DNA from: an uncultured delta proteobacterium
GTDB taxonomy: Bacteria; Desulfobacterota; Binatia; Binatales; Binataceae
DNA: 64,000 bases
Direction of reading: 5' to 3'
NCBI GenBank assembly: GCA_963765675.1
Contig: CAVXXK010000001.1
Location: forward strand, 800,001-864,000
Of this stretch, positions 16,311 through 35,574 are shown piece by piece. The notes under the pieces were generated by a model that did no database searches, had not been told where the DNA came from, and was given only the letters and a program-made list of their open reading frames with translations. How positions within the stretch are numbered: position 1 is the stretch's first letter; each line of letters opens with the position of its first letter. A program made the translations under genes and the position numbers.

Positions 16311-17138
16311 TTGGCTAAAAGCAGTTCAGGGTCGAAGTCCGAGAGGTCGAGTGGCCAGCAGGAGGAAGCGACGACCGCCGACTCTGAGCAGACTGCTCGT
16401 AGCGGCGGCGCCGACAAACTCATCGAAGAGCTGCGGGAGGCGATCAAGGCCCGCGACGATTTCCTCGCTATCGCGACTCACGAACTCCGCAATCCACTGA
16501 CGCCAATCCTGCTCTGCCTGGAGCTCATTCGAGCTGCGGAAAAATCGAACGATCGCGCCAAGCTGCGCCATGAGATCGATCGCCTGGAGCGTCAGATTAA
16601 GCATTTTCTCGCCCGGATCAATGTCTTTCTCGAAGTCGCGCAAATTCGCTCGGGGAAGTCCAATCTCGATCTCTGCAAATTGAACTTGTCGCAGTTGATC
16701 TCGGGGATTGTGAACGACTACATGCCGCTGGTGGTGCGCAGCGGATCGGAGCTGACGATCAAGATCCAGAACGATGTTATGGCGTTCGTCGATCGGATGG
16801 CCGTATCGGAAATCGTAGAGAATTTACTTTCCAATGCGATCAAATATGGCCGGAGCAAACCGATCGAGATCGCTTTGACGGCTACAGCCGAAACCGCTCG
16901 GATAACCGTTCGCGACAACGGCATTGGCATTGACGAAAAAGATAAAGCACGCATATTTGAACGGTTTGAACGAGTGGCGAGCGGTCGGTTTCAATCCGGC
17001 TTTGGGATCGGACTGTGGCTCGCGCGGAATTTTGCAGAGTTGATGGGCGGCTCCATAACTGTATTCGGAAAATCGGGCGTCGGTTCACTTTTTACCGTGA
17101 CCTTGCCGACGGAAGAGGGGAGAATCCATGAGCAGTGA
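16311..17138 (+). CDS. Cytoplasmic histidine kinase lacking a sensor domain
   Basis: ATHELRNPL H-box, NLLSNAIKY, DNGIGI, FERF, GIGL; TTG start. Confidence 0.88.
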   Translation: MAKSSSGSKSERSSGQQEEATTADSEQTARSGGADKLIEELREAIKARDDFLAIATHELRNPLTPILLCLELIRAAEKSNDRAKLRHEIDRLERQIKHFLARINVFLEVAQIRSGKSNLDLCKLNLSQLISGIVNDYMPLVVRSGSELTIKIQNDVMAFVDRMAVSEIVENLLSNAIKYGRSKPIEIALTATAETARITVRDNGIGIDEKDKARIFERFERVASGRFQSGFGIGLWLARNFAELMGGSITVFGKSGVGSLFTVTLPTEEGRIHEQ

Positions 17139-18588
17139 CGTTCGACCGCTTACGCGCGTCCGCTCCGGCGTTAAAGGACTCGACGACATTCTCCGTGACG
17201 GCTTCTTCGGAGGTGGTCTGTATATCGTCGAGGGTCCGCCCGGGGTCGGCAAAACAATCCTGGGGAATCAAATTTGCTTCAATCAAGCAGCCGCCGGAAG
17301 CAGGGTTCTATACGTCACGCTGATCGCCGAAACGGTGGGTCGGATGCTGCTCAACATTAGAGGCCTGAGATTCTTTGACGAGGCCGTGGTCGGCAACGGC
17401 ATCTTCTATGTCAGCGGCTACAATGCGTTGAAGAAAGACGGCCTGTCGGGTTTGCTTCATTTACTGCGCAGAGAGGTCGCCGGCCGCAAAGCCACGACGC
17501 TGATCGTCGACGGCTTTGCTTCAACCTCCGATCACTCGCAATCGCGCGAGGAGTTGAAGCTGTTCGTGCAGCAGTTACAAACCCAGGCCGACGCCTCAGA
17601 CTGCACTGTCTTTTTGCTGACGAACCCAAGCGAGCAGAAGCCCTCGTCCGAAGAAACCATGGTTGACGGAATTATCAATCTCGGCACGACGGTCCACGAA
17701 TGGCGCTCGGCCCGCGAACTGTGCGTCCGAAAATTTCGCGGTAGTGCTTATCTTCAGGGTGTCCACTCGTATGACATCACCGAAGAAGGAATCACCGTCT
17801 ATCCGCGGCTCGAAACGCTGATCAGCTCGGGCACTGAGCTCAACGGGGAAACCAAGCGGGTTTTGTCCGGAAACCCGCGCCTGGATGCGATGCTCGGAGG
17901 CGGATTCCCCGCGCGCTCGTCGACTATGGTCATCGGGCCGTCCGGAACCGGGAAGAGCACTCTGGGTATGCAATTCCTGGCGCAATCAAACGCCGCAGAA
18001 CCGGGCCTGTTGTTCGGGTTTTACGAAAGACCCGAGCGAATCCGCGCCAAGGCAAAGACCATCTGTCCGCCGTTGCTGCAGCAACTCGATGCCGGCCACG
18101 TTCAGATTCTATGGCAACCGCCGACCGACCAGTTTCTCGACGAGCTCGCCGACCGGATGCTGCGCGATATCAAAAAGAGAAAGGTGAAGCGTCTGATGAT
18201 CGACGGTCTCGGCGGCTTCAAAAGAGCGCTCCGTTCGAGACCGATCGAGCCGTTTTTTTCCGCCCTGGTTCATGAATTGCGTGCGCAGGGAGTCACCTCG
18301 ATCTGTACGGCCGAAGTTATGGAGATCGTGGGACCGACTATCACCGTGCCGCTGCAGGGGTTGTCCGACGTGACCGACAATCACATCCTGCTGCGCTTTG
18401 TCGAATCAGGCGCGAGCCTGTACCGGGTGCTTTCGATACTCAAGGTGCGCGACAGCGCATTCGACTCTGATTTGCGGGAACTCCATTTCGCGGCTAGCGG
18501 ATTTGAACTCGCTGAAAACTCCGCGAGCGTCAAATCGATCCTGCCGCGGGTTGTTACGAAACCCCCAACCGAGGTGACTCAAGACTAA
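17128..18588 (+). CDS. KaiC-like tandem RecA-fold ATPase
   Basis: Two Walker A motifs (GPPGVGKT, GPSGTGKS), KFRGS and KVRDS motifs, SGNPRLDAMLGGG. Confidence 0.9.
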   Translation: MSSDVRPLTRVRSGVKGLDDILRDGFFGGGLYIVEGPPGVGKTILGNQICFNQAAAGSRVLYVTLIAETVGRMLLNIRGLRFFDEAVVGNGIFYVSGYNALKKDGLSGLLHLLRREVAGRKATTLIVDGFASTSDHSQSREELKLFVQQLQTQADASDCTVFLLTNPSEQKPSSEETMVDGIINLGTTVHEWRSARELCVRKFRGSAYLQGVHSYDITEEGITVYPRLETLISSGTELNGETKRVLSGNPRLDAMLGGGFPARSSTMVIGPSGTGKSTLGMQFLAQSNAAEPGLLFGFYERPERIRAKAKTICPPLLQQLDAGHVQILWQPPTDQFLDELADRMLRDIKKRKVKRLMIDGLGGFKRALRSRPIEPFFSALVHELRAQGVTSICTAEVMEIVGPTITVPLQGLSDVTDNHILLRFVESGASLYRVLSILKVRDSAFDSDLRELHFAASGFELAENSASVKSILPRVVTKPPTEVTQD

Positions 18589-21176: not shown

Positions 21177-22730
21177 ATGGCGGCAGGTGCATTACGTGTG
21201 AGCGCTCAGAACGCGCCGGCGCCGGAGCGCATATCGCTGGCGCGGTATTCTCCCGCGTTGCTGCTTCTTTCCACGGTGCTGATGATCGCGTACCGATGGC
21301 CCGATCCGGACCTTTGGTGGCACATCTTCTCGGGCCGCGCGATCCTGGCGACGCATCACCTGGTCTTTCCCGATCCATACTCGTACACCTCCGCAGGCGC
21401 GCTCTCGCACACGCAGGAGTGGCTATCGGACGTGATCATGGCCGTGGTGTACAACCACCTCGGCGTGCTCGGGCTCAGATGGCTCAACTTTGCGGTTGCC
21501 GCTGCAACGATTTTTTTCCTCGCGATGATCGCGGCCGAAACCGCCGCCGGCCCGACGCTGCAATTTGCGGTCGTACTCAGCGCGGCGATCGCAATGGGGC
21601 CGTTGATGCAAATTCGGCCGCAGATGTTCGACTATGCGATGCTGTCGGCGATCCTGTGGATGCTCACGCGCGACAATTTTGGGTGCCGTGCACCGCTATG
21701 GATCACGATCCCGATTCTCGCGCTGTGGGCAAATCTGCACGGCAGCTACTTCCTGCCGGTCGCGATCCTATCGCTATATGCAGGAGTCGCCGGGGTTGTT
21801 GGCGTCTGGACCGGTGCCGGATTGGGACGCGCGATTCGCGCCGGCGCCGTCGCGATCGGCGCAGCGATCGCGACGCTGGCCACGCCGTTCGGCGTGAACT
21901 CGTGGATCACGGTCGCGCATACGATGACCAATCCGCTCAACTCTCACCTGAGTGAGTGGCGCCCATTCGTGACCGTGATGGCCACGGAATGGAGTCACGG
22001 CGGCTTCGGGGACTTCAATTACCTGATCGTGCTCGCGATGATGGGGGCTACCGCTGCCGCGATCATCGTCCGGCCGCGCGGCCGTGACCTGCCGATGCTG
22101 GCGATCGCGGCTTTGACCTGCGCCGGAGCGTTCATGGCGATACGCGCGGTCGCTTACGCGGTGCTCGCGATGGTCGAGCCGCTGGCGAATCATTTCGGGC
22201 TATGGGCGGGAACACCGCGGGAACATCCGCGGCGGCAGGCGCTCGGGTTCCAAACAGCGATCGTCGCGCTGTCGATCGCGGTAGGCGCGGGGACCGGATT
22301 ATTTTCGCGCTCGCTCGATGCGGGTGACGTGCCCAATGGCGCGGTCGCGTTCATGGGCACGCACGATCTCCGCGGTAACGTGCTCGCGCGCTTTGACTGG
22401 GGCTTCTACCTGCTCTGGCACAGATGGCCAAACGCGCGGGTGTTTATCGATAGCCGCTACGACCTGCTGTACCCGAACCGCGTGGCAACGGAATACCTCG
22501 CATTCGACGGCGGCGGTCCGGCAGGGTCACGCGTACTCGATGAGTACCCAACTGACTATGTGCTGATCGCGCCGGACGCGGCAGCATTCGGGACGATGAT
22601 GCATCAACCTGGATGGGTACTTGTCTATCGCGACTCGAGTGCGGCGCTTTTCGCGCGCGCGGGATCGGCGGCGGCGCGGATTCCGGGCGTGCCGATTATC
22701 GCGAAGCGGCCGATCGCACTATTCCCTTGA
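21177..22730 (+). CDS. Polytopic membrane protein, possibly GT-C-like
   Basis: DPDLWWH..GR, EWL, RPQ, LWANLHG, EW.P, VFIDSRYDL motifs; many TM segments. Confidence 0.7.
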   Translation: MAAGALRVSAQNAPAPERISLARYSPALLLLSTVLMIAYRWPDPDLWWHIFSGRAILATHHLVFPDPYSYTSAGALSHTQEWLSDVIMAVVYNHLGVLGLRWLNFAVAAATIFFLAMIAAETAAGPTLQFAVVLSAAIAMGPLMQIRPQMFDYAMLSAILWMLTRDNFGCRAPLWITIPILALWANLHGSYFLPVAILSLYAGVAGVVGVWTGAGLGRAIRAGAVAIGAAIATLATPFGVNSWITVAHTMTNPLNSHLSEWRPFVTVMATEWSHGGFGDFNYLIVLAMMGATAAAIIVRPRGRDLPMLAIAALTCAGAFMAIRAVAYAVLAMVEPLANHFGLWAGTPREHPRRQALGFQTAIVALSIAVGAGTGLFSRSLDAGDVPNGAVAFMGTHDLRGNVLARFDWGFYLLWHRWPNARVFIDSRYDLLYPNRVATEYLAFDGGGPAGSRVLDEYPTDYVLIAPDAAAFGTMMHQPGWVLVYRDSSAALFARAGSAAARIPGVPIIAKRPIALFP

Positions 22731-22790
22731 AACCTTACGGCTCAAGTGCCGCGCACGGTTGGTGCAGCATTTGTCATCGGTGCCCGCGCG

Positions 22791-23074
22791 CTACCTCACA
22801 CCGACGATCTCAGCAGTCGAGCAGTGATACACCCATCGTGGGCGCCCCGAAGCACCAGATCAAACCGACTGTCCTTCTGCGTGCGATATAGCGGCAGCTT
22901 GCCTTCCGCGTTCGTGCACAGGCAGTGGCCGCACGGCGTCTTTCCGCGGCAGTCTCGATAGCAGACGATATAATCTTTGCCGTCGCCCGGATGCTTGTAT
23001 GTCCCAACCCATGAAGGCGACGCTCCAGGCGGGCAATCGTGCGAACCGCCGCAGCACGAACAGAGCCATCCGAT
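22791..23074 (-). pseudogene. Decayed duplicate of the 3' half of the amine dehydrogenase light-chain gene
   Basis: Aligns by eye to 37183-37480 (CSCCGG.HDCPPGAS, KHPGDGKDYIV.YRDC, LPLYRTQKD, LIWCFGAPTM, YHCSTAEIVG) with indels and Cys losses. Confidence 0.85.
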
Positions 23075-23642
23075 TCTCAGTTGTGATCATCATGGTGGCG
23101 GCTGGATCCGCCGGGACGCGCCTGGGTTTCTCGCCGGTCCATCGACGCCACAACCGTTTCAGCCCGCGCGCCAAGCGACGGAGCATTCGAGTCGAGGAGC
23201 CAGGCGATTGGAGCTCTGCGGGCGGCTCGCTGATCCTCGGACCAAACGCAGGGCACGGTCCTGCAGCGAAGGTCGCCGCGCGCAGCGAGCTTTCTGGCTC
23301 TGGCAGCGGGCGGCCGACATAATCGAGTGTAACGATCGAGCCCGGACGATCATTCACACGAAAGCACCACTTGCAGCGCACACATGTGTATAGATACGGC
23401 CGCGATTTCAAGCTTCCGGATCTCGGCACAGCCTCGATTGCAAAGCTGTGCCGAGCCTCGCGTGGTGCGAACGCATCGCGCGTCTTACGCGCGGCCGGCT
23501 TTTCGGATCTCTCCGTTCGCGGTTCGCTCTGATATTGGAATGGAGTGGGGACAAACTCGGTCAGTGGATAGACCCAAGAAAGCGGAATATCGCCCGCTTT
23601 CGTAACCGGCCACACGGCTCGAACTTCCCGACGCGGCTTCAT
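23075..23642 (-). CDS. Hypothetical protein with a CxxC...C motif; the frame runs on into the mauA remnant (ORF stop at 22860)
   Basis: RBS GAGAAGG, ATG at 23642, YTCVRCKW...GPCPAF; sigma54-type promoter upstream. Confidence 0.55.
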
Positions 23643-23698
23643 TTTTGCGCCTTCTCGTTGGTGAGGGACGTGACGGCCGGCACCACACCCGACTTAAA

Positions 23699-23714
23699 CG
23701 CAAATACTGCGCCG
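23699..23714 (-). promoter_or_regulatory. Putative sigma54 (-24/-12) promoter
   Basis: Minus strand CGGCGC-AGTAT-TTGCG. Confidence 0.5.
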
Positions 23715-23889
23715 GATGTCGGTCAGTATTCGCCGGCCACAGACCGGCATAAGCTTCGGCGGAAAATCTTCAATCAAATTGCGAGAATTACTTCCGACCC
23801 TGTCACCGGCGCCGGCTAATGCGGTTCTCCTGATTGGCAACCTTTTTCGGTTGAGCTGGGCGCGCAGCGCAGAATGAATTGCCGTGACG

Positions 23890-23971
23890 TTTCAGCTTGA
23901 ACGACTATGCGTGCTTCATCGCCAGGAAAGTCAGACAACTCCAGAGAAATCCGCCCGGCACAGGCGATGCT
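23890..23971 (+). promoter_or_regulatory. Putative activator site plus sigma54 promoter of the P-II-like gene
   Basis: TTTCA-GCT-TGAAC at 23890; CGGCAC-AGGCG-ATGCT at 23956. Confidence 0.55.
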
Positions 23972-24076
23972 CTAGTCTCTTTTCATCGGCTGCTTTCCTC
24001 CGACTGGGGCCGATTTGAATTGGTCAGTTTGCAGAATACTCATACTCTTTTGTGCAGAAGGCTCGGTGATCATCAA

Positions 24077-24463
24077 ATGAAGAAAGTAGAAGCGATTCTG
24101 AGCCCGGACATTTTTGAAACGATCAGGGATATTCTCATCAGCCGCGGCTGCCGCGATTTCGTGGTCTCCGAGGTTAGAGGCGCGCCGGGCAATGGAGCGC
24201 AGCCAAAGCGTTTTCGCGGCATCGACTATACTCCTGATGAACCGAGACTGAAGCTCGAGACTGTTGTCGCCGACGAAGATGCGATGGCCACGGCGCACGT
24301 TATCCTGGCCGCATCGCATAGCGTCGAGGTATCAGGGCAAATGGTTACGGTGTGTGCGCTCGAGCGCGTCATTTCGATAGGTATATTAAATCTGGATGAC
24401 CAACCTATTGATTCTCGCGCCAGCTTCCGCAGAGAGTTACTGAGTAATGGAAGCCGTTCATAG
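24077..24463 (+). CDS. Non-canonical P-II-like protein
   Basis: MKKVEAIL.P...VSEVRG...FRGIDY...PRLKLETVVADE resembles GlnB; GFGRQ and GDGKIF are absent. Confidence 0.75.
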   Translation: MKKVEAILSPDIFETIRDILISRGCRDFVVSEVRGAPGNGAQPKRFRGIDYTPDEPRLKLETVVADEDAMATAHVILAASHSVEVSGQMVTVCALERVISIGILNLDDQPIDSRASFRRELLSNGSRS

Positions 24464-24677
24464 TGAAATACGCTTAATCAGCTTCTGCTGAAGCCATCAG
24501 CGCGTGCTCGCAAACGCCGCAGCACATCAGTCTCCATAGCCCGTAGATTTCCTGTAAGTACAACGACTTTTCGCGAAGCACCGGTCTTGCAATCCGGTTT
24601 GGGTTCGCAACGCGTCGGCCCCCGTGGTCACCGCGTCTGCGTAGGCGACCCAAAACGGATTTAGAGGAATCAAGACT

Positions 24678-26489
24678 ATGTGGCTGCTTCCGATCTCGAT
24701 GCTTGTAACTACGACCCTGCTGGCCATTCCATTGAGCCGTTATCTCGCCTGGATCATGAATGGCGAATATCGTCCGCCGCGGTGGTTGCAATCGATCGAG
24801 ACTCGGCTTGATCTCGGTCAGCAGGACTGGAAGCAGTACACAGTCGCGTTGCTGATCTTCAACTTCCTGCTGTTCGTGTACACCTACGTGGTTTTGGCAG
24901 TGCAACCGCTGATGCCGTTGAACCAGCTCCATCGCGGAATGCTGGCGCCGACCACGATCGTCCATGCGGCGATCTCGTTGTGTACCAACACTGATCTGCA
25001 ACACTGGTCCGGAGATTCGCAGTTTTCCAATTTCAGCCAGATCTTCGCGATGATCGCGAATTTCTTCTTCTCCGCGTCAATAGGGTTTTGCGCGCTCACC
25101 GCGATCATTCGTGCGCTTCGTGATGGTCCTCGCAAGGTTGGCAGCTTTTTCCTGGATATGTGGCGGGTCATGATTTACATGTTCCTGCCGATCGGTTTCG
25201 TTCTCTCCATCGCCTTCCTGCAACAGGGCTCTCCTATGACTTTCCGGGCGGCTCAGATGGTGTCCACCGTTGAGCCGGCCTCGATGGGCACCACTGATAA
25301 CGGGCAGGCGAAGCAGCAGACGGTCGTGCTAGGTCCTCTCGCCGCATTCGTGCCGATGAAACAGCGCGGCACCAACGGCGGAGGGTTCTACGGCGCCAAC
25401 TCGGCGCATCCTTTCGAAAACCCCACGGCGTTCACAAATTTCCTGTCGAGCGTCGGAATGATGCTGTTCCCGTTCGCATTGGTGCTGATGTACGGCCGCA
25501 TGCTGCACAAGCAGCGCCATGCGTGGGTGATTTTCTCGGTGATGATGGTGTTGATGATCGGTACCGTCATCTGGTCCGTGTACTTCGATACCCATAAACC
25601 GAACCCCGGCCTCACCGCACACCCAGTCGAGCGGAAATTCGAGTTGGACACGGCAGGCGGAAAGAAAGCGATCGTTCTGCCTGCTGTCGCGGGACTGCCG
25701 GTCGATCAGCATCTGGGAAATCTGGAAAGCAAAGAGCTTCGTTTTGGAACTTCCGCCGGCGCAACTTTCGCGGCGATGACGGTCGACGTCACGTGCGGAG
25801 CGGTAAACTGCGCTCACGATAGTCTGAATCCTATTGCCGCGTTGTCCCCGATGGCTGGAATGTGGGTGAACTGCATATACGGCGGCAAGGGCGTGGGCAT
25901 GATCAACCTGCTCGTGTTCCTGATTATCGGAGTATTCGTAGCCGGCCAGATGGTCGGTCGAACACCCGAATATCTGGGCAAGAAGATCGGCGGACGCGAA
26001 ATGAAGCTGGCGATGATCGGTCTCCTGATTCACCCGATCATGATTCTCGGGCCTACCGGACTTTTCGCTGCAACTAGTTGGGGCCAAAAGGCCGAGTTCA
26101 ACCCGGGTGCTCACGGCTTCTCGGAAGTCATGTACGAGTTCTCCTCGGCGTCGGCCAATAACGGATCCGGTTTCGAGGGGTTGGGGGACACGTGGGGTCT
26201 CAACGACAACCCGAGTCCTGCGCCAACCAGCAGGGCGTGGGATTTCGCAACCGTCATCGTAATAACTATCAGTCGATTTATCCCGATAATCGCTCCCATC
26301 GCTCTAGCTGCAGGCATGGGTGCGAAGAAGACCGCCCCGTTCGGACTGGGTACGATGCGCGACGATACGGTTACATTCGCCCTACTGCTGATCGGAACGA
26401 TCGTGATTATCGGCGCGCTGCTGTTTCTTCCCGTAGCGGCTCTTGGACCGATTGCGGAGCATCTGGGGCCAATCCCCTTTGGCGGGTAG
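24678..26489 (+). CDS. kdpA: Potassium-transporting ATPase subunit A, divergent paralogue 1
   Basis: TNTD, GTNGGG, ANSAHPFENP, KELRFG, TCGAV, GRTPEYLGKK, NNGSGF, LGPIAEHL. Confidence 0.92.
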   Translation: MWLLPISMLVTTTLLAIPLSRYLAWIMNGEYRPPRWLQSIETRLDLGQQDWKQYTVALLIFNFLLFVYTYVVLAVQPLMPLNQLHRGMLAPTTIVHAAISLCTNTDLQHWSGDSQFSNFSQIFAMIANFFFSASIGFCALTAIIRALRDGPRKVGSFFLDMWRVMIYMFLPIGFVLSIAFLQQGSPMTFRAAQMVSTVEPASMGTTDNGQAKQQTVVLGPLAAFVPMKQRGTNGGGFYGANSAHPFENPTAFTNFLSSVGMMLFPFALVLMYGRMLHKQRHAWVIFSVMMVLMIGTVIWSVYFDTHKPNPGLTAHPVERKFELDTAGGKKAIVLPAVAGLPVDQHLGNLESKELRFGTSAGATFAAMTVDVTCGAVNCAHDSLNPIAALSPMAGMWVNCIYGGKGVGMINLLVFLIIGVFVAGQMVGRTPEYLGKKIGGREMKLAMIGLLIHPIMILGPTGLFAATSWGQKAEFNPGAHGFSEVMYEFSSASANNGSGFEGLGDTWGLNDNPSPAPTSRAWDFATVIVITISRFIPIIAPIALAAGMGAKKTAPFGLGTMRDDTVTFALLLIGTIVIIGALLFLPVAALGPIAEHLGPIPFGG

Positions 26490-26520
26490 GCTGCCGAGAA
26501 CGAGTAATGTTGCATACACC

Positions 26521-26624
26521 TTTCAAAATGAAATGTTCACGAGTGCAGAACTCATCGAGGGCAAGAGTCCAGAGGCGATTTTACCGACAATCCGTGGTTG
26601 CGGCTCAGTGGCATCGCTGTTGCT
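26521..26624 (+). promoter_or_regulatory. Activator inverted repeat plus sigma54 promoter of the kdpFABC operon
   Basis: TTTCA-AAA-TGAAA at 26521; TGGCAT-CGCTG-TTGCT at 26609-26624. Confidence 0.7.
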
Positions 26625-26699
26625 CAATTAGAATTTCTGAGGGTCTCTTCAAAACTGAATCCCTAAGAAAACAGATAGCGGCTCTGGAGAAATAGGACG

Positions 26700-26795
26700 A
26701 TGGACTTAATGATTTGGATCCCGATCACATTTTTTCTGGGCGTAGGAACGATGGTGCTCTGTTATGCCTTCCTGATCGCCTGCGAGAAAATCTGA
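26700..26795 (+). CDS. 31-aa single-TM peptide upstream of kdpF
   Basis: MDLMIWIPITFFLGVGTMVLCYAFLIACEKI*, AGGA RBS; too short for the ORF track. Confidence 0.7.
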   Translation: MDLMIWIPITFFLGVGTMVLCYAFLIACEKI

Positions 26796-26806
26796 GGAAC
26801 CGCACC

Positions 26807-26887
26807 ATGATCTATCTTACCGCAATAGTCTGTGTGTTGTTATTTGTGTATCTGACTGTCGCGTTGGTTCGCCCCGAATGGTTCTAG
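26807..26887 (+). CDS. kdpF: Kdp ATPase subunit F
   Basis: MIYLTAIVCVLLFVYLTVALVRPEWF*, typical YL..AL.RPE.F ending, RBS GAGGA. Confidence 0.9.
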   Translation: MIYLTAIVCVLLFVYLTVALVRPEWF

Positions 26888-26906
26888 GCGTCCGGCTTTT
26901 GAGGTA

Positions 26907-28736
26907 ATGACGATGACTCAATATTGGCTTCTTCCGGCCGCGTTAATCGTGGTGGCCATCGCGGTTTCCATTCCATTGAGCAAATACGCAGCGTGGATAA
27001 TGGAAGGCCATTACCATCCGCCGCGGCTGTTCGCCTGGTTTGAGAAAAAGCTCGACAGCGGACCGCAGGGCTGGAAACAGTACACTGCGGCGCTGCTGAT
27101 CTTTAATCTCGTGCTGTTCGTCTGGGGTTACCTGGTGCTTGCGCTACAGCCATTCACGCCGCTCAACCCTCGGGGTTTGGGCATGTTGGCGCCAACAACC
27201 ATCTTCAATACCGTCACGTCATTCATGACGAATACCAACCTGCAGGATTATGCAGGCGATGTTAATTTCTCAAACTTTACCCAGATATTTTTTACAATCT
27301 CTAATCAGTATATTTCGGCGGCAGTCGGGTTTTGTGCACTTGCGGCGATAATCAGGGCTTTTCGCGGTGAATCGAAAGTCGGGAATTTCTTCGTCGATAT
27401 GTGGCGCGTCCTGATCTACATGTTCGTCCCCGCCGCGATTCTGGTGGGCGTGCTCTTCATTCAGCAAGGGATGCCGATGACATTTCAGAGCACTGTGCAG
27501 GCGACCACGGTCGAACCTGGAGCGATGGGTACCGACGACAAGGGAGCGGCGAAGCAGCAGACCATCGTAATGGGGCCGGTCGCCGCGATGATACCGATCA
27601 AACAGCTCGGCACCAATGGTGGCGGGTTTTTCGGCGCCAATTCCGCTCAGCCATATGAAAATCCCAGCGCATGGACGAACTTCCTCACCTGCCTAGCGAT
27701 GATGATTTTTCCGTTCACGCTGGTGCTGATGTTCGGCCGAATGCTCAGAAAAATGCTGCACGCTATCGTTATCTACGCGGTGATGTTGACCCTGATGGTG
27801 GGGATGATCGTGTGGGCGATTTACTTCGAGCTGAAGCCAAACCCAGGCCTGACAGCTCATCCGACCAGCGTGACTTATAAGATTCCCAGCGCTACCGCGG
27901 CTGGCGGATTCCGGGAGATCAAGATTCCAACCGTTGCCGGACTGCCGGTTGATCAGCACAGCGGGAACCTGGAGGGCAAGGAACTGCGTTTCGGTACTGT
28001 CGCAGGACCAACCTTTGCGGCGTTAACCACTGCGGTTACCTGCGGCGCCGTCGACTGCGCGCACGATAGCTTGAACCCGCTGACGGGACTCTCGCCGATG
28101 GTGGGCATGTGGCTGAACTGCGTATTCGGCGGCAAGGGTGTCGGAATGATTAATCTCCTGCTCTTCCTGATCATCGGCGTATTTATTGCGGGCCAGATGG
28201 TGGGGAGATCGCCCGAATACCTGGGCCGGAAAGTCGGCGCACGCGAGGTCAAGCTGGCGGTTATCGCGCTCTTGGTTCATCCACTGATGATCCTCGGGCC
28301 CACCGGAGTGTTCGCCGCTACCAACTGGGGAATCAAAGCGGAATTAAATCCCGCCGCGCATGGCTTCTCGGAGGTTATGTATCAATTCAGCTCGGCATCG
28401 GCGAACAACGGTTCGGGTTTCGAGGGACTTGGCGACACCTGGGGATTTAACGCCAACCCCAATCCAGCTCCGACCAGCCAGGCTTTGGACATAGCGGCAG
28501 GATTGGTCATGCTGTTCAGCCGATATCTACCCATCGTCGCGCCGATTGCGATGGCGGCTTTCCTCGGGATCAAGAAGGAGGCGCCGTATGGGCTCGGGAC
28601 CATGCGCGACGACACGTTGACATTTTATTTCCTGTTGCTCGGCACCATCGTGATTATCGGAGCGCTGCTGTTTCTGCCGGTCGCAGCGCTTGGTCCGTTA
28701 GCGGACCACCTGGGTCCGATACCGTTTGGTGGATGA
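26907..28736 (+). CDS. kdpA: Potassium-transporting ATPase subunit A, canonical paralogue 2
   Basis: SFMTNTNLQ, KQLGTNGGG, TTAVTCGAV, NNGSGF. Confidence 0.95.
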   Translation: MTMTQYWLLPAALIVVAIAVSIPLSKYAAWIMEGHYHPPRLFAWFEKKLDSGPQGWKQYTAALLIFNLVLFVWGYLVLALQPFTPLNPRGLGMLAPTTIFNTVTSFMTNTNLQDYAGDVNFSNFTQIFFTISNQYISAAVGFCALAAIIRAFRGESKVGNFFVDMWRVLIYMFVPAAILVGVLFIQQGMPMTFQSTVQATTVEPGAMGTDDKGAAKQQTIVMGPVAAMIPIKQLGTNGGGFFGANSAQPYENPSAWTNFLTCLAMMIFPFTLVLMFGRMLRKMLHAIVIYAVMLTLMVGMIVWAIYFELKPNPGLTAHPTSVTYKIPSATAAGGFREIKIPTVAGLPVDQHSGNLEGKELRFGTVAGPTFAALTTAVTCGAVDCAHDSLNPLTGLSPMVGMWLNCVFGGKGVGMINLLLFLIIGVFIAGQMVGRSPEYLGRKVGAREVKLAVIALLVHPLMILGPTGVFAATNWGIKAELNPAAHGFSEVMYQFSSASANNGSGFEGLGDTWGFNANPNPAPTSQALDIAAGLVMLFSRYLPIVAPIAMAAFLGIKKEAPYGLGTMRDDTLTFYFLLLGTIVIIGALLFLPVAALGPLADHLGPIPFGG

Positions 28737-28786
28737 GTAACTAAGTAACGAAGAGCCACAGGACTTTTTCGACGGAGCAATCGAAA

Positions 28787-30950
28787 ATGGAAGCACTTAA
28801 AGACGCGCCGATACCGGAACTGAACATCGATCCGCCGCTACCTGCACCACCGCGACGCTCGCGTGCGCAGGCGCTGTTCGCGCCGGAGCTCGTGCGCCCG
28901 GCGATCAAGGAAGCATTCTTGATGCTTCGTCCCGAGGTTCAATGGCGCAACCCGGTGATGTTCGTGGTCGAAATTGGCGCCGTGCTCACGGCTCTGTTTA
29001 TCATCCAGGCGGCGCTGGGGGCCTCATCCAGCCAGGTATCAGTCAACTATTTCATTGCCCTCGATTTCTGGTTGTGGCTGACAGTACTATTCGCGAACTT
29101 TGCGACCGCGCTGGCGGAGGCCCGCGGCCGCGCGCAAACTGAATCGCTGCGCCGGGCCCGCACCGATACGCCGGCGTACCGTCTCAAGGGCGCGGACATC
29201 ATCGAAGAGATTCTGGCTTCCGACCTTCATCCGGGCGACCGGGTGGTCGTGAAGGCTGGCCAGGTAATTCCGGGTGACGGCGAAATCATCGAGGGGATCG
29301 CTTCGGTGGACGAGTCGGCAATCACCGGCGAATCCGCTCCAGTGATCCGCGAGTCGGGGGGTGATCGGTCAGGAGTGACAGGGGGCACTCGAGTGATCTC
29401 AGACAGTATAGTTGTGAGAATCACCGCGGCGGCCGGGGAATCATTTCTCGATCGAATGATCGCGCTGGTCGAGGGCGCGGTTCGTCAGCGCACGCCTAAT
29501 GAAATTGCGCTCAGCCTGGTGCTGACGGCGTTCACGCTCATCTTTCTGATCGTCGTCGTTCCGCTGTGGCCGATGGCGTTGAATGCGGAAATATACATGA
29601 TGAGCTATCTCGGCATCACCGAGCCGCTCAAGAGTCTCGGAACCGATGTTCCAACCCTTGTCGCACTTCTAGTCTGTCTGATTCCTACTACAATTGGCGC
29701 CTTGCTCGCGGCGATCGGCATCGCGGGCATGGATCGAGCCCTGCAGGCCAATATCCTCGCTAAGAGCGGCAAGGCGGTCGAGACGGCGGGCGATATCGAC
29801 ACCGTGTTACTCGACAAGACTGGCACGATCACGATGGGCAATAGGCATGCGACTGAGTTTGTTCCAGTTGGAAGGTATACTGCGCTCGAGCTCGGCCGGC
29901 TGGCTGCGATGGCTTCGATCGCGGATGAGACGCCCGAAGGCAAAACTATAGTCAAACTCTATTTCGAACGAGGCGGCGGAGCCGGCGATCTCAACGTTCC
30001 GAAAGGAGCAGAGTTCGTTCCGTTTTCCGCGCAAACGCGGATGAGTGGAGTCGACCTCCCGGGCGGCAGGACGATTCGCAAAGGCGCACCTGACGCTGTG
30101 CTTCGCTTTGTTGAACGTCAGTCGATGGCGGTGCCCGCAGATCTGCAGCCGACCGTGAACTCGATCGCATCACTGGGCGCGACGCCGCTGGTAGTTGCCG
30201 ACGGTGCGAGCATCGCGGGCGTTGTGGTGCTCTCAGACGTCCTCAAAGCCGGAATCAGCGAGCGCCTCGAGCGCCTGCGCAAGATGGGCGTGACGGAGCG
30301 TGATGATCACCGGAGACAACCCGCTTACCGCCGCGACGATCGCGAAACAGGCCGGGGTTGATGATTTCGTTGCCCAGTGCACGCCGGAGTCGAAGCTCGC
30401 CTACATCAGGAACGAACAGGCGGCGGGCAAGCTGGTTGCGATGGTCGGTGACGGCACCAACGACGCGCCCGCGCTCGCACAGGCCGATGTGGGCCTCGCA
30501 ATGAACTCGGGCACACAAGCCGCCAAGGAAGCAGGCAACATGGTGGACCTGGACAGCAATCCCACCAAGTTGCTCGAGGTCGTCGAGATTGGAAAGCAGC
30601 TACTCATGACGCGCGGCTCGTTGACCACGTTTTCGATTGCAAACGACGTTGCCAAATATTTCGCGATCGTGCCGGCGCTGTTCGCAGGGACGCTACCCTG
30701 GCTGAAGGCGATGGACGTGATGCATCTGCATTCGCCGATCTCGGCCATACTCTCGGCCGTGATCTTCAATGCGGTAATCATTCCATTACTCATTCCGATC
30801 GCTTTGCGTGGCGTTCAGTATCGCCCGCTGGGCGCCGATGCGTTGCTCAGGCGAAACCTGCTGGTCTGGGGGCTCGGCGGCGTTCTTCTGCCGTTCGTAG
30901 GAATAAAGCTGATCGACATGATCATGGTGGCCGGGCACTTGGTTGCCTGA
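28787..30950 (+). CDS. kdpB: Potassium-transporting ATPase subunit B, one frameshift at ~30293
   Basis: [49 protein letters not shown]; removing A30293 restores [12 protein letters not shown]. Confidence 0.93.
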
Positions 30951-30978
30951 CGAAGACAGAATCCAGAGGAGCATTTCT

Positions 30979-31995
30979 ATGGGACGCTATTTTTCGAAGA
31001 GTTTTCTTCTCTTTCTCTTCGTGATTCCGACTGTCTGTATCGCATACCCGCTGTTTCTGTGGGTGATTGGCCAGGTATTCTTCCCATTCCAGGCCAACGG
31101 CAGCATCCTGCGGGACGCCCATGGCAATGCAATTGGCTCACTACTGATCGCTCAACCGTTCACCAAGGACGAGTACTTCCAGCCGCGTCCATCGGCGGCG
31201 TCCTACGACGCTTCGGCCTCGGCTCCCTCGAATCTCTCGGCCTCCAACTATGCGCTGCGGGATCGGGTCGCGCGCTCGCTCGGGCCAATCGTCAAATACG
31301 CCGACGGACCAAAGAAGGGTCAGCTCGTCGCACCTGACGTTGAAGCGTGGTTCCAGCAGGACAAGTTCGGCGGACAGCCGCACATCGTTGCCCAGTGGGC
31401 CGACGCTCACAACGAGCTCGCGACGGGTTGGGTGAACGCGGATCCGTCGCATGGCGCGTATGTGGACGATTGGTCCAAAAAACATCCAGGCGTCGTCGCA
31501 CAGTTCAAGAAAGACAATCCTGGAACGCCGGATCCAAAAGCTCCGGATCTCGCGGTGGTGTTTTTCGAGACTTTTTCGAAGGAAAATCCGGGCAAGTTTC
31601 CGTCTTCTGTTTCGCATCAGGGTGCAGACGGCAAGACTACGACTGCGATCGAGCCGGTGGCTGATGGCTCGGACATACAATCGATCTTCTTCGATATGTG
31701 GCGCCAGGAGCACGCTGACGTCCAGCTCGAGGATGTTCCCGGAGATATGGTTACGGCGTCAGGCTCCGGCCTTGATCCTGATATCAGCATGCAAAACGCT
31801 GAGTATCAGATCGACCGTGTTGCGCAGAAGTGGGCTTCGGACACCAAGCGTGATCCCAAACAGGTGCATGACGAGATCGAGCAGATATTGCGGGCGAACG
31901 CGCAGGCGCCATTTGGCGGATTGGCCGGCGAACAGTTCGTGAACGTGCTTCAGGTAAACCTGGGCTTGAAAGAGCGTTACGGCGAACCCAAGTGA
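30979..31995 (+). CDS. kdpC: Potassium-transporting ATPase subunit C with a long insertion
   Basis: FPFQANGS, GSLLIAQPF, YFQPRPSA, DMVTASGSGLDPDIS, VNVLQVN. Confidence 0.9.
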   Translation: MGRYFSKSFLLFLFVIPTVCIAYPLFLWVIGQVFFPFQANGSILRDAHGNAIGSLLIAQPFTKDEYFQPRPSAASYDASASAPSNLSASNYALRDRVARSLGPIVKYADGPKKGQLVAPDVEAWFQQDKFGGQPHIVAQWADAHNELATGWVNADPSHGAYVDDWSKKHPGVVAQFKKDNPGTPDPKAPDLAVVFFETFSKENPGKFPSSVSHQGADGKTTTAIEPVADGSDIQSIFFDMWRQEHADVQLEDVPGDMVTASGSGLDPDISMQNAEYQIDRVAQKWASDTKRDPKQVHDEIEQILRANAQAPFGGLAGEQFVNVLQVNLGLKERYGEPK

Positions 31996-32065
31996 CTCGG
32001 CAGCCTTGTACACCTGCGGGTGTGCTTCAGGAGCCTCCGTTGTGCCTCGAACGAGGTCGTCACAG

Positions 32066-33130
32066 ATGGATGCATTGGTCTCCAATGACGAGAACCGCAG
32101 GACTGCCGCGATCATCGAAAGTCTAGAAGTAGGAGCAATCCTGCTCGACCGCAATGGAATTGTCGTCCATATAAACGAATTGGCCGCACTCATCCTGGGT
32201 ATTGAGCGGGAAGGAGTCATTGATCATCCTTTTGAAAGGCTCGAGGTTGATAGCCATCATTACCTCCGAGTTCGCGCCGCGCTGCAACGGATCAGCGACT
32301 ATCCAGCCGGTGAAAAACAGATCGAGGTGAGTCTTCATGTGCGCGGCCGCGAACACAACTATCTGCTGAAACTCGGAGAGTTGCGGCTCCCGGACGGTAC
32401 TCTGTTTGGAAACATAATTGCGTTTCACGACCTTACCTATATCCGCGACAAGGATCGCGCACGCTCGAACCTGGTGGCCTCTCTCTCGCATGAGCTCAAA
32501 ACTCCTCTGACTTCGCTCTCGCTTGCAGTTGAGCTTCTCCAGCGGACGGCCATCGATCCCAGACAGCGCGAAACCATCGAAACCATTGGCGAAGATTTGG
32601 CTCGAATCCGTGATTTGTCCGATAGCTTGCTCAATATTGCGCGTGACGAAAGCGCTTCAATTGCAGTCCTGACTGTAAACTTCGACTTCGCGAAAATGGT
32701 GACTTCCGTAGTCAAGAAATTCGCCTTGCAGGCTGCGCAAAGAAGCGTATTCCTTCGCGTACATGCAGGCGCTGAGCTCGAGACCTATGGCGATCCCGCC
32801 AAGTTGTCATGGGTTTTGTCTAATCTTATCGCTAACGCACTGCGCTACATTCCTGACGGCGGGACCATTGAAGTGTCCGCTGCGCGAGTGGGGCAATTGT
32901 TGCGGCTGTCGGTCTCGGACACCGGCCCAGGCATACCCTTGGAAATTCGCGATGTGATTTTTGAACGTCACACGCCGTGGCTTGCGGATAGCTTCGAGAG
33001 GGGACCCACTGGCCTCGGTCTGGAGATCACCAAGGAGATTGTCGAAGCGCACGGTGGGCGAATATTCCTCGAGGTCTCCGGGGAAGGGAGCACGTTTACG
33101 GTCGATCTTCCACAGTCGTGGCAGAAATAG
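32066..33130 (+). CDS. Cytoplasmic PAS-domain histidine kinase
   Basis: PAS-like N-terminus, SHELKTPLTS, NLIANALRY, DTGPGIP, TGLGL; no TM helices. Confidence 0.88.
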   Translation: MDALVSNDENRRTAAIIESLEVGAILLDRNGIVVHINELAALILGIEREGVIDHPFERLEVDSHHYLRVRAALQRISDYPAGEKQIEVSLHVRGREHNYLLKLGELRLPDGTLFGNIIAFHDLTYIRDKDRARSNLVASLSHELKTPLTSLSLAVELLQRTAIDPRQRETIETIGEDLARIRDLSDSLLNIARDESASIAVLTVNFDFAKMVTSVVKKFALQAAQRSVFLRVHAGAELETYGDPAKLSWVLSNLIANALRYIPDGGTIEVSAARVGQLLRLSVSDTGPGIPLEIRDVIFERHTPWLADSFERGPTGLGLEITKEIVEAHGGRIFLEVSGEGSTFTVDLPQSWQK

Positions 33131-34465
33131 ATGGCGAAACTTCTCGTCGTAGACGACGAAAAAAATATTCGACATGCCGTAGGAGAGTTCTTGCAATCCT
33201 GCGATCTCGAGACCTGTACGGCTGACAGTGGCCGTGAAGCTCTCGCCCTCATGGACCGCAGAGGCGCCTTCGACCTCGTCTTGACCGATTGGCGGATGGC
33301 CGAAATGAACGGCCTCGAACTGCTCAAGGCAATCAAGGAGAAATATCCAGACACTATAGTAATTCTGATGACGGCATACGGCACGGTCGGCAACGCCGTT
33401 GCCGCCATGAAGGCGGGGGCACACGACTATCTAACCAAACCCTTTACGCTCGATCAGATCCAACACACTATTGAACGCGCACTCGAGGTCAGAGAATTAC
33501 GCTCGCAGAATCGGGCACTTCGAAACTCAATGGAGGGTCTCCCGCTTCTCACCTCAAGCAGCCCGGTCTTTCGTTCGCTCATCGCAACGGCCCATGCGGC
33601 GGCTTCAAGCGATGCGACCATCTTGTTCACGGGAGAGAGCGGAACCGGAAAGAATGTTCTCGCGAGGCAGATACACGAATGGAGTTCGCGCCGCGAGCAT
33701 CCCTTCGTAATCGTCAACTGTACTACGCTTTCGGAGCATCTCCTGGAGAGTGAACTCTTCGGCCACGTAAAGGGCTCGTTCACCGGAGCGATCAAGGACA
33801 AACCCGGGCGCCTCGAAGCTGCAAATGGCGGTACGGTTTTTCTCGATGAAATCGCGGAATTGGCGCCCTCGCTGCAGATAAAGTTCTTACGTTTCTTACA
33901 GGAACAGCGATTTGAGCGGGTTGGCGGCGAGAAGACGATTGAGGTTGACGCACGCATCATCGCAGCGACCAACCGCAATCTTGAACAGGAGACCAGCTCG
34001 GGCCGTTTTCGCAACGATCTCTACTACCGATTGAACGTTATATCCGTGCGTGTTCCGGCATTGCGGGAGCGTCCGGAGGACATTTTGGTGCTGGCAGACA
34101 AACTGCTGACGGAAGCCGCAGCACGCAATCAGCGCTCCGGGTTACGCTTTTCGGAAGAGGCGCAGAAATCGCTCATCGCCTATGCATGGCCGGGTAATGT
34201 CCGCGAGCTGCGCAACGCGGTTGAACGCGCAGTCGCTTTGAGCCGCGGCACGGTCATACGCAAGGAGGATCTGCCTGACACCATTTTTCATGGCCACGGC
34301 ACAGGTGCCGGAGTACCCCCGGAAAACGCTAGCCTGGAACAAGTGGAGGAACAGCATATCAGGCGCGTGCTCTCGATTGCTCCGACCCTCGAGGACGCCG
34401 CCGCAACGCTAGGCATCGGGGTCGCCACCCTTTGGCGCAAGCGAAAGCGCTTTCAGATTGATTAA
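33131..34465 (+). CDS. Sigma54-dependent response regulator (NtrC/AtoC family)
   Basis: REC domain, GESGTGK, ESELFGHVKGSFTGA, FLDEI, WPGNVREL, C-terminal HTH. Confidence 0.95.
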   Translation: MAKLLVVDDEKNIRHAVGEFLQSCDLETCTADSGREALALMDRRGAFDLVLTDWRMAEMNGLELLKAIKEKYPDTIVILMTAYGTVGNAVAAMKAGAHDYLTKPFTLDQIQHTIERALEVRELRSQNRALRNSMEGLPLLTSSSPVFRSLIATAHAAASSDATILFTGESGTGKNVLARQIHEWSSRREHPFVIVNCTTLSEHLLESELFGHVKGSFTGAIKDKPGRLEAANGGTVFLDEIAELAPSLQIKFLRFLQEQRFERVGGEKTIEVDARIIAATNRNLEQETSSGRFRNDLYYRLNVISVRVPALRERPEDILVLADKLLTEAAARNQRSGLRFSEEAQKSLIAYAWPGNVRELRNAVERAVALSRGTVIRKEDLPDTIFHGHGTGAGVPPENASLEQVEEQHIRRVLSIAPTLEDAAATLGIGVATLWRKRKRFQID

Positions 34466-34535
34466 CTGCGCTTGGTCGATCGGCACCTGGACCCATCTGG
34501 TTAATTCCTGAACCTGCAACTTGCAAACTCCGACT

Positions 34536-34617
34536 TTTCAAAATGAAGTACTCGGACGAATTGTTCTGAAAGATTGGCTTGGTTCTGCCACAGGCAGTTC
34601 GCGGCATGCCACGTGCT
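34536..34617 (+). promoter_or_regulatory. Putative activator site plus sigma54 promoter
   Basis: TTTCA-AAA-TGAAG at 34536; CGGCAT-GCCAC-GTGCT at 34602. Confidence 0.5.
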
Positions 34618-34667
34618 GCTAGCAATCTGGATGGCTTCAATGCCATCGCGCAGAGGAGCGCGGGACC

Positions 34668-35069
34668 ATGGGTGTATACCAGCTTGCGGCAGTGATTCTT
34701 GATTCGGTCAAGCAAACGTCGCAATGGATGCAAGGAGCGGCGATAGTCGTCAGTCGATCCGCCCTTGCCACGAACATTCTGGGCGGCTCGTCGGTCAGCG
34801 CGGCGGCACGCGGGCCCTCTGCTCACGATCTTTTTCTGACTGCGGTGGCATTGACGATTGAGATCGCTCTGTTTATTTCTATCCCGATTTATTTGCGCGC
34901 ACGGCGGCGTGACAAGATCCGCTCACGAATACACATTGTTTATGACAGCCGACGCGATCGATTAGTGCGGCCAAAGACAAGTCTCCTCGACTCGCAGGCG
35001 GGATGGCAGCACCATTTTTACTCAATGAAACCGCCAATCTCTCTCCGGCGCAACGCTCCACGTTCTTGA
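34668..35069 (+). CDS. Hypothetical membrane protein
   Basis: RBS GAGGAG, one strong TM segment followed by a basic stretch (RARRR). Confidence 0.5.
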   Translation: MGVYQLAAVILDSVKQTSQWMQGAAIVVSRSALATNILGGSSVSAAARGPSAHDLFLTAVALTIEIALFISIPIYLRARRRDKIRSRIHIVYDSRRDRLVRPKTSLLDSQAGWQHHFYSMKPPISLRRNAPRS

Positions 35070-35478
35070 GATCCGGCAGCCACGAACGCCCGTAGTGAAC
35101 CAGGTGCGGATGGATATTGTCCGCCTTGGTTGAAAGCGGATCATGGTCGGCGACGCTCCGGAGCTCGCGGGGATGAAGCGCTTTTTCTTCCATGACCACT
35201 GGAAACAGCTCCCTTTCTGCCGGAAGACTAGACGTTCGGTAAGACTCAATCGCACGGGGCTCAGGCAGTGGCTGGAAACGGAAGGCGCTTGGATTCAGCG
35301 CTGGGGATTTCGCGCTCTGTCGCGATGGCACCGCTAGGGGCACAAGACCGACATCATGTTCCGCAGGTGCAACAACTCGCCAACGATAAAATCGAGGGCA
35401 GAACGGACACAATTCCGTAGCAGAGCGCCTGAGAGTGCAATGCCCAATCCAAAAAAAGTTTAGTTAAATCAAGGACTT

Positions 35479-35574
35479 GGAGGAGGAAGGGGCCCGGTGG
35501 TCCCACCGGTCTTCAAAACCGGCTTGGCGGCTAATATTGTTGCCGGAGGGTTCGACTCCCTCCCCCCTCCGCCA
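35479..35574 (+). tRNA. selC: tRNA-Sec (anticodon UCA)
   Basis: 8-nt acceptor strands, 6-bp D stem GGGGCC/GGTCCC, CCGGT-CTTCAAA-ACCGG, long variable arm, GAGGG-TTCGACT-CCCTC, GCCA end. Confidence 0.95.

Follow-up and report, generated by a model that had tools for sequence, protein, structure and literature searches.

A kdp locus of a distinct branch with two KdpA genes and sigma-54-type promoters in an uncultured Binataceae bacterium

Kdp serves as the model of how a channel-like subunit is coupled to a P-type pump, and to our knowledge nearly all mechanistic work on it is based on the complex of Escherichia coli. P-II signal proteins encoded beside transporters regulate them, as GlnK does with AmtB. 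Here we describe a 12-kb kdp locus with two kdpA genes that lies in a 64,000-nucleotide stretch of DNA (hereafter the window; positions 800,001 to 864,000 of contig CAVXXK010000001.1, assembly GCA_963765675.1) from an uncultured bacterium of the Binataceae. We think it reasonably likely that this locus encodes a second ATP-driven K+ pump, of a distinct Kdp branch and under sigma-54 control, with two alternative channel subunits that probably differ in K+ affinity or pH dependence.

The locus is like E. coli KdpFABC with KdpD/KdpE (PDB 5MRW, 6HRA) in its KdpAs, which belong to the K+-transporter superfamily, have four filter strands and are full-length matches to E. coli KdpA (E 5.5e-91), in a KdpB with DKTGT, TGES and the membrane Asp/Lys pair, and in a single-pass KdpC and KdpF. 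It differs in having two KdpAs, a gene for a 31-residue peptide (pep31) and a KdpC about 140 residues longer; furthermore, its KdpA copies carry three loop inserts, lack an equivalent of Glu370 while keeping Arg493, and have His or Asp at position 117, and the locus has sigma-54 promoters instead of KdpD/KdpE. With the kdp genes of Desulfovibrio vulgaris Hildenborough (DVU3334-DVU3339.1), as described in PMC3333781 and PMC4641369, it shares an NtrC-type sigma-54 regulator encoded with kdp, which in the window would likewise control these genes, and a kinase separate from the KdpD sensor domain, and the canonical kdp locus of the window's own genome has exactly that layout. In contrast to the D. 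vulgaris system, the window locus has no KdpD sensor+Usp gene, its PAS kinase is short and soluble, several of its promoters are internal, and it adds two KdpAs, a P-II-like gene and pep31. Finally, a small gene of the P-II fold stands directly 5′ of a channel-like gene and behind a sigma-54-type promoter, as with GlnK and AmtB; unlike that pair, the P-II-like gene here, known from its sequence, is not tied to one KdpA and its neighbours are very diverse (27-43% identity).

Two KdpA copies and one KdpB/KdpC lineage

The two copies, KdpA1 (24678..26489, + strand, 603 aa; PF03814 588.5 bits, TIGR00680 477.1 bits) and KdpA2 (26907..28736, + strand, 609 aa; 602.9 and 478.4 bits, against cut-offs of 22.6 bits for PF03814 and 387.7 bits for TIGR00680), are 66% identical (401 of 605). 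In the KdpA tree KdpA1 falls within a 15-row, mainly Binataceae clade (support 98), in agreement with the KdpB tree, and the KdpA2 proteins of the window and of L005, L006 and L008 (L-numbers are labels of loci fetched from related genomes) lie outside that clade, next to a Myxococcota pair (support 86). Constraining the two copies to one clade costs 82 log-likelihood units (approximately unbiased (AU) test, p-AU 0.029), for a group that was named only after the tree had been seen. A recent tandem duplication of kdpA was rejected by the tree and the AU test together.

The ratio of nonsynonymous to synonymous substitution rates (dN/dS) of kdpA1 is 0.03-0.05 between species, and 0.17 against L005, where changes are few; that of kdpA2 is 0.04-0.05, and kdpB and kdpC give similar pairwise values. 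KdpA1 and KdpA2 each keep 280 of the 296 columns with at least 85% conservation among the 33 other members of the branch, and keep 145 and 147, respectively, of the 149 invariant columns. Judged from these figures both copies are intact and under strong purifying selection, and in this genome kdpA1 is not the strain-specific decaying duplicate that a preliminary description of the locus had named as its refuting case.

The relation of the two copies to the pump is seen in the clade of window-type loci in the KdpB tree (support 100/99, 9 tree rows), to which the frameshifted kdpB genes of the window and L009 were assigned by tblastn identity. Orthologues of KdpA2 (at least 85% identity) occur in 9 of 151 sampled Binataceae genomes; seven of the nine were then fetched, and two correspond to the L006 and L008 contigs. 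Both copies are present in four of the 11 loci with orthologous KdpB (the window, L005, L006 and L008). KdpA1 is the only copy in two (L007 and L009), where it lies 65 nt 5′ of pep31, and KdpA2 is the only copy in the remaining five, of which three (L046, L048 and L049) have no remnant of kdpA1 and two keep a deletion remnant (the last ~210 nt in L047, 152 nt in L050). Each of the three subclades of the KdpB tree contains the two-copy state, and the simplest history would therefore be an ancestor with both copies followed by repeated loss of one, mostly KdpA1. Since relatives with a single KdpA of either kind have an orthologous KdpB, either KdpA would serve the same KdpB/KdpC; that one KdpB/KdpC lineage works with either KdpA, as the preliminary description had suggested, is well supported by this comparison, the strongest evidence for it, and physical assembly of either subunit with the pump would follow the same pattern. 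Across these loci the pair appears dispensable, in that keeping both copies is not essential. Two of the loci, L046 (G074) and L047 (G084), come from the window's own genus, with KdpA2 95-96% and KdpB 96-100% identical; they are without kdpA1 and without the kinase/regulator pair after kdpC, and retain the sigma-54 promoter and palindrome 5′ of pep31.

The two copies differ at the mouth of the filter. Filter strand 1 reads TNTDLQHW in KdpA1 and TNTNLQDY in KdpA2, and strands 2 to 4 are identical between the copies; the sequence of most branch members is TNT(D/N)LQHY, and that of canonical KdpAs is TNTNWQ(S/A/G)Y. Alignment places the differing residues at E. coli positions 114, 117 and 118, flanking Gln116, with Asp and His at 114 and 117 in KdpA1 and Asn and Asp in KdpA2. 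In the KdpA1 clade eight otherwise conserved columns carry clade-specific changes, three of them no more than 13 residues from strand 1, and in the KdpA2 clade the His-to-Asp change at 117, present in eight of nine orthologues, is one of nine. For E. coli KdpA, PMC12629597 (eLife 2025) reports that apparent affinity is set by the net charge at the filter entrance: Q116R has a Km of about 21 mM, Q116E is wild-type-like, and in Q116H the Km becomes pH dependent. Nine further Binataceae genomes have two or three full-length copies, and in every one of them Asp and Asn both occur; sister paralogues with one Asp and one Asn occur in Nitrospirota (L030, L032) and in a metagenome-assembled genome (MAG) of Myxococcota (L033). 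On the 43-row tree (23 Asp, 20 Asn; kin are not independent) the state has changed at least four times. This recurrent split between paralogues, seen in three phyla, is a plausible lead towards a functional difference, not proof of one, and the different ion properties proposed in the preliminary description are hinted at by the filter-mouth residues to this extent only.

A distinct branch of the Kdp family

A search with KdpA1, limited to one genome per species, gave 41 loci, which were mapped by tblastn with the window proteins. The operon type that emerged is pep31-kdpF-kdpA-kdpB-kdpC, with a KdpA of ~605 aa and a KdpC of ~340 aa, and it spans at least eight phyla. Its records are assigned to Binataceae or 'Deltaproteobacteria', to Terriglobia/Acidobacteria, to Thermoguttaceae and Pirellulales (Planctomycetota), to Fibrobacterota/Chitinivibrionales, Nitrospirota and Myxococcota, to an alphaproteobacterium, and to the Burkholderiaceae Burkholderia multivorans, Paraburkholderia oxyphila and a Cupriavidus; sample descriptions include peat, bog, soil and mine drainage. 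In a KdpA tree of 55 rows, from which four rows shorter than 540 aa had been removed and which included only copies at least 90% covered by one tblastn segment, the 43 branch rows form one clade against 12 canonical rows (100% in the Shimodaira-Hasegawa-like approximate likelihood ratio test), and the KdpB tree (42 rows) has the same split. A full-length branch KdpA is found in 59 of the 151 sampled Binataceae genomes (hand count, best E ≤1e-200); six genomes flagged as unpublished were counted in the denominator only.

Branch KdpAs have three loop inserts and His at E. coli position 117, and in all displayed rows a one-residue gap and an Asn replace the canonical Gly-Glu370, with Arg493 kept. 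Glu370 and Arg493, a buried pair, are part of the E. coli conduction path according to PMC12629597, and the pair is not a family-defining feature. The four filter strands of KdpA1 and KdpA2 are of the K+ type when aligned to canonical KdpAs including that of E. coli (TNT(D/N)LQ, GTNGGGF, TCGAV and ANNGSGF). In two Mucilaginibacter loci (L043, L045) the KdpAs are canonical by identity (36%), yet they have the gap and Asn for Gly-Glu370, NLQHY in strand 1, and GFEGLGD after strand 4.

The peptide gene pep31 (26700..26795, + strand) encodes a 31-residue membrane peptide with the C-terminus ACEKI and matches no Pfam or NCBIfam family. Its product is exactly 31 aa long in 39 of 39 listed copies, with M1, L3, G14 and C28 invariant among 31 aligned and a conserved Trp6, Gly14 and CEKI-like C-terminus, and public records name it 'hypothetical protein' or 'protein of unknown function'. 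It may be a subunit of the pump. The adjoining kdpF (26807..26887, + strand, 26 aa; TIGR02115 26.2 bits, cut-off 26.85) keeps its position, its 26-aa length and its RPEWF end in 35 listed copies. A pep31-like reading frame of 27 codons, ending GC(E/Q)(K/R)L, also lies 5′ of kdpF-kdpA in canonical kdp operons of Binataceae, at L004:10864-10947 (-) in the window's own genome (G000 C1) and at L012:19613-19696 and L036:4289-4372. The pep31-type pattern has 40 matches in 1.58 Mb of loci, which are 36 mapped pep31 genes, one truncated L019 pep31 read and these three canonical-operon frames. In two Nitrospirota MAGs a second set, pep31-kdpA-kdpC(-kdpB) without kdpF, stands beside a normal operon (L030:5-2967 (-), L032:9793-14971), and the second-set kdpB of L032 is broken into many pieces.

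KdpC (30979..31995, + strand, 338 aa; PF02669 179.4 bits, cut-off 24.1, matched in two stretches) is ~140 aa longer in alignment than the 196-aa KdpC of the genome's canonical locus. The additional ~140 aa, at about residues 105-255, are well conserved across phyla and are modelled with a pLDDT of 88-97; because of this insert the protein scores below the NCBIfam equivalog cut-offs (164.1 against 178, and 142.2 against 152.55). A comparison of the KdpC model with the PDB matched E. coli KdpC chains only (7 hits at E ≤0.001) and gave no fold relative of the insert beyond KdpC (next best E 0.21). A search with the insert only found 287 cluster representatives of 1.84 billion at E ≤0.001, and in the full-length matches the insert again lies at about residues 105-255, which argues that it is confined to long KdpCs.

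In a literature search made mostly without subscription journals we found no published description of this Kdp branch, of two kdpA genes in one operon or of a P-II-like gene with kdp. Trees and shared sequence features place the whole operon in a separate, as yet undescribed Kdp branch, which the preliminary description overlooked.

Promoters, regulators and gene content of the locus

The best sigma-54 promoter of the locus, TGGCATCGCTGTTGCT (26609..26624, + strand; one mismatch to the consensus), lies 91 nt 5′ of pep31. A like element stands 87-91 nt 5′ of pep31 in all four two-KdpA loci (background 0.067 per 500 nt) and is also found in L046 and L047; single-KdpA relatives have GGCAT-N5-TTGC at 99-113 nt. 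A second, non-canonical element (24576..24591, + strand; AAGCAC-N5-TTGCA) lies 102 nt 5′ of kdpA1, where the block AGCAC-N5-CTTGC is invariant in six of six aligned relatives although the rest of the spacer is poorly conserved. Directly 5′ of the whole operon, L007 and L009 have no such element other than the AG form. Weaker matches are CGGCACAGGCGATGCT (23956..23971, + strand), 121 nt 5′ of the start codon of the P-II-like gene, with a like element 5′ of 7 of 13 scanned P-II-like genes (pattern background 0.12 per 300 nt), and CGGCATGCCACGTGCT (34602..34617, + strand), 5′ of a small open reading frame at the end of the locus, with the counterpart CGGCATGTCCCTTGCT in L005. On the minus strand a further sigma-54-like element lies at 23714, in the interval between the P-II-like gene and its divergent neighbour. 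The preliminary description of a sigma-54-controlled region is supported by these conserved elements, with the difference that the best promoter lies between kdpA1 and pep31 and not 5′ of the cluster.

Each of the four elements associated with + strand genes is preceded by a palindrome of the form TTCA-N3-TGAA, a candidate enhancer site. These are TTCAGCTTGAA (23891..23901), 65 nt 5′ of the element of the P-II-like gene, with the same module in L005; TTCATAGTGAA (24457..24467), 119 nt 5′ of the kdpA1 element, with the same spacing in L005 and L008; TTCAAAATGAA (26522..26532), 87 nt 5′ of the main promoter, with 87-88 nt in L005, L006, L008, L046 and L050; and TTCAAAATGAA again (34537..34547), 65 nt 5′ of the last element, with the same module in L005 and L047. 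Five TTCA-N3-TGAA palindromes occur in the window where 0.6 are expected, and none of 100 shuffles reaches five. The fifth (44533-44543) is at the start of an open reading frame (44523-45158) far from the kdp locus. In L005, L006 and L008, 11 of 12 palindromes have a sigma-54-like element 64-119 nt downstream, mostly at 87-88 nt. A repeat search found no inverted repeats 5′ of two promoters, the half-sites of the palindrome being too short for its search seed; seven upstream regions share no exact 9-mer, and predicted sigma-70 promoters and terminators in 23600-35400 do not exceed those in shuffled sequence (2 against 5.7 and 14 against 11.5).

Downstream of kdpC are a soluble PAS-HisKA-HATPase histidine kinase (32006..33130, + strand; probable start ATG at 32066) and a sigma-54-dependent response regulator (33131..34465, + strand) whose profile matches comprise a receiver, an AAA+ domain with the GSFTGA loop and HTH_8. 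The receiver Asp, Walker A, GSFTGA loop and HTH of the regulator are intact (PF00158 225.5 bits), and the genome encodes rpoN (Sigma54_DBD match at C1:1595180). The genome also has a third, canonical KdpA ~240 kb away in a kdpA-kdpB-kdpC locus, 3′ of which come a KdpD sensor+Usp gene, a 595-aa PAS kinase and a sigma-54 regulator, that is, a split KdpD. The window regulator is 60% identical to that of the canonical locus, with a near-identical HTH, and the window kinase is 52% identical to the C-terminal part of the 595-aa kinase; the canonical operon itself has TGCAAAATGAA 65 nt before TGGCAC-N5-GTGCA. The two loci probably share signals. Since the canonical operon has a like promoter, a near-identical palindrome and a like regulator, sigma-54 control would be a trait of the lineage and no special feature of the window locus, and the dedicated sigma-54 regulon of the preliminary description finds no support in this comparison. 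For D. vulgaris, PMC3333781 and PMC4641369 describe sigma-54 control of kdp with a split KdpD and give a GSFTGA loop for a regulator; judged by its conserved elements, sigma-54 control of the window locus is probably real but not novel. Within the locus no match to KdpD (PF02702) or to an OmpR-type regulator was found by profile scan, so that the earlier statement that kdpD and kdpE are absent is right for the locus. The genome has the KdpD sensor gene at its canonical locus, and the lack of kdpD is a property of the locus and not of the genome.

The P-II-like gene (24077..24463, + strand, 128 aa; PF00543 35.2 bits, cut-off 25) encodes a protein whose Atlas model aligns to P-II clusters (TM 0.76/0.85) and which is identical in L005. 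A T-loop-like stretch, RFRGIDY, is present; inspection of the alignment by eye showed no glycine-rich nucleotide loop. The P-II-like genes of other Binataceae branch loci are 27-43% identical and sometimes occur two in tandem. They precede branch operons whether kdpA or pep31 comes first, and remain where kdpA1 has been deleted (L048, L050), which suggests that their role concerns the pump or its regulation as a whole and is not specific to KdpA1; the protein may be a regulator. At L012:7556-9301 an HPr-like reading frame (GLHMRP motif) and tandem P-II-like genes of 116 and about 200 aa lie 5′ of a kdpA-first operon, and tandem P-II-like genes, one short and one long, also occur in L013.

Genes were identified from an open reading frame listing and Pfam and NCBIfam profile scans, which confirmed every gene of the preliminary description, from the hypothetical gene to the small membrane protein, in the same order and all on the + strand except the first. 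This hypothetical gene (22860..23642, - strand; 260 aa, Arg-rich) is divergent from the P-II-like gene and matches no family in Pfam or NCBIfam; relatives 5′ of a P-II-like gene were found by tblastn in L005 (74%) and in L006, L007, L009 and L048 (39-43%). At the other end a 133-aa reading frame (34668..35069, + strand) with one hydrophobic stretch matches no family, and has relatives 3′ of kdpC or of the regulator in L005 (75%) and L047 (65%). The two-KdpA order is no assembly artefact, as a contig from an independent mine-drainage run covers 23804-27133, from the P-II-like gene into kdpA2, and the same gene order is found in three other genomes (L005, L006, L008). A look for public sequencing runs that contain the stretch gave no RNA run. 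The nearest relative among the fetched loci is L005, a Candidatus Binataceae MAG with a 98% identical KdpA1. Its synonymous distance from the window is ~0.06 for the P-II-like gene, kdpA1 and kdpA2, and 0.29 for kdpB, 0.63 for kdpC, 0.26 for the regulator and 0.32 for the kinase; by these distances the locus is a recombination mosaic between strains (24077-28736 against 28787-34465). A scan of 22500-35500 for RNA families, riboswitches included, gave one match only, at chance level (17.9 bits; gathering score 100). Elsewhere in the window, at 16311-18588, a gene for a KaiC-like double ATPase (PF06745, 182.7 bits) comes immediately after a histidine kinase gene.

A model for the locus and its alternatives

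We propose a model for the locus that fits these observations. The pump would likely consist of pep31, KdpF, a KdpA of ~605 aa, KdpB and a KdpC with an extra domain of ~140 aa. KdpA2 would be co-transcribed with the pump from the sigma-54 promoter at 26609, KdpA1 would be expressed from its own non-canonical sigma-54-type promoter and the P-II-like gene from another, and all units would lie behind the shared TTCA-N3-TGAA enhancer-like palindrome. The adjacent PAS kinase and sigma-54 regulator would probably switch these units on, and the regulator's paralogue at the canonical kdp operon would probably contribute through cross-talk. Either KdpA would assemble with the same KdpB/KdpC and, through Asp and His in KdpA1 against Asn and Asp in KdpA2 at 114 and 117, probably yield pumps that differ in apparent K+ affinity or pH dependence, a difference that may be useful in acid soils.

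Several observations weigh against this model, in addition to the late naming of the group in the AU test. KdpA1 has been deleted in five of the 11 related loci, two of them in genomes of the window's own genus, and the two-KdpA state is found in only four of the 151 sampled Binataceae genomes, which suggests that keeping two copies brings at most a weak or condition-dependent advantage. Recombination between strains also makes it harder to tell in what order copies were gained and lost. In the Terriglobia pair of L025 both copies have Asp, and the two Kdp papers that we searched for E. coli position 114 yielded no discussion of it. The kdpA1 element has AG where sigma-54 promoters have GG. 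Finally, kdpB is out of frame in the given assembly.

The strongest competitor of the model, in our view less likely but deserving serious consideration, is that the two copies do the same job and that two KdpAs are present only transiently, as a result of gene transfer or of the merger of two neighbouring branch operons, with lineages drifting towards one copy. The independent losses (KdpA1 alone in 2 of 11 loci, KdpA2 alone in 5 of 11, with remnants in two) fit such a drift, as does the two-copy state in each KdpB subclade, which implies frequent loss; KdpA1 and KdpA2 keep equal numbers of conserved columns, and Binataceae often have two full branch operons adjacent to each other (L013; pairs ~5.6 kb apart) that a deletion could merge. 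However, where both copies are kept, each has a dN/dS of ~0.05 over synonymous distances above 1.5, a long time for a neutral duplicate to persist; the Asp/Asn split recurs in nine of nine further two-copy Binataceae genomes and in sister paralogues of two other phyla, and each copy has clade-specific changes clustered around filter strand 1.

Two further readings seem much less probable. That the locus is dead in this strain, with a real kdpB frameshift and an operon heading to decay, we regard as very unlikely. It would account for the single extra A at 30293, overlooked in the preliminary description, which splits kdpB (28787..30950, + strand) into two frames (28787-30292 and 30294-30950) at profile position 465 of 675, the first covering positions 3-464 and the second 466-674 of TIGR01497. 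However, contigs from four of four public runs (three studies) omit one letter at 30293/30294, and among them that of run X2 carries the window allele at 30362, its listed pieces being 0-3 letters off the window; these contigs are unable to exclude a rare variant at 30293. There is no further stop or shift across the 12-kb locus, and the genome is in very long contigs (16, one of 2.44 Mb), other long-contig MAGs showing similar single shifts (L009, L046). L005, L006 and L008 align without the extra A, and kdpB has DKTGT, TGES, NDVAKY and the membrane Asp/Lys pair; on this comparison the extra A is very probably an assembly error. A programmed frameshift was rejected, the extra base occurring in no relative and a slippery run being absent. 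Still less credible is a KdpA1 that acts independently of the pump and transports K+ (or NH4+) on its own, as a channel-like protein under gating by the P-II-like protein, in the way of other transporter/P-II pairs. Its own promoter-like element and its place after the P-II-like gene would suit this role, and extra kdpA genes without their own kdpB stand beside operons in L025 and L033. Against this, an orthologue of KdpA1 (85% identity) is the only KdpA of a kdpA1-pep31-kdpF-kdpB-kdpC operon in L007 and L009, P-II-like genes persist without KdpA1 (L048, L050) and precede single-KdpA operons (L016), and all four of its filter strands are of the K+ type.

A pump of the distinct branch with two alternative KdpAs remains the reading we prefer. 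The derivatives with a single KdpA amount to a natural subunit-swap experiment, in which the same KdpB/KdpC lineage is found with KdpAs only 66% identical, and this swap points to the contacts needed for coupling. The Asp/Asn split offers a single residue for effects on affinity and pH. Furthermore, the branch alters features stressed in recent work on E. coli, namely the filter-mouth charge and the pair of Glu370 and Arg493, and adds a conserved peptide and a KdpC domain. More tentatively, the branch as a whole might be one of acid-soil-associated Kdp pumps with an outer face rebuilt by the three KdpA loop inserts and a new KdpC domain of ~140 aa, a fifth subunit of 31 residues, swappable Asp/Asn KdpA isoforms that set K+ affinity or pH dependence, and a P-II-like post-translational switch, and it may bear on potassium supply in acid soils.

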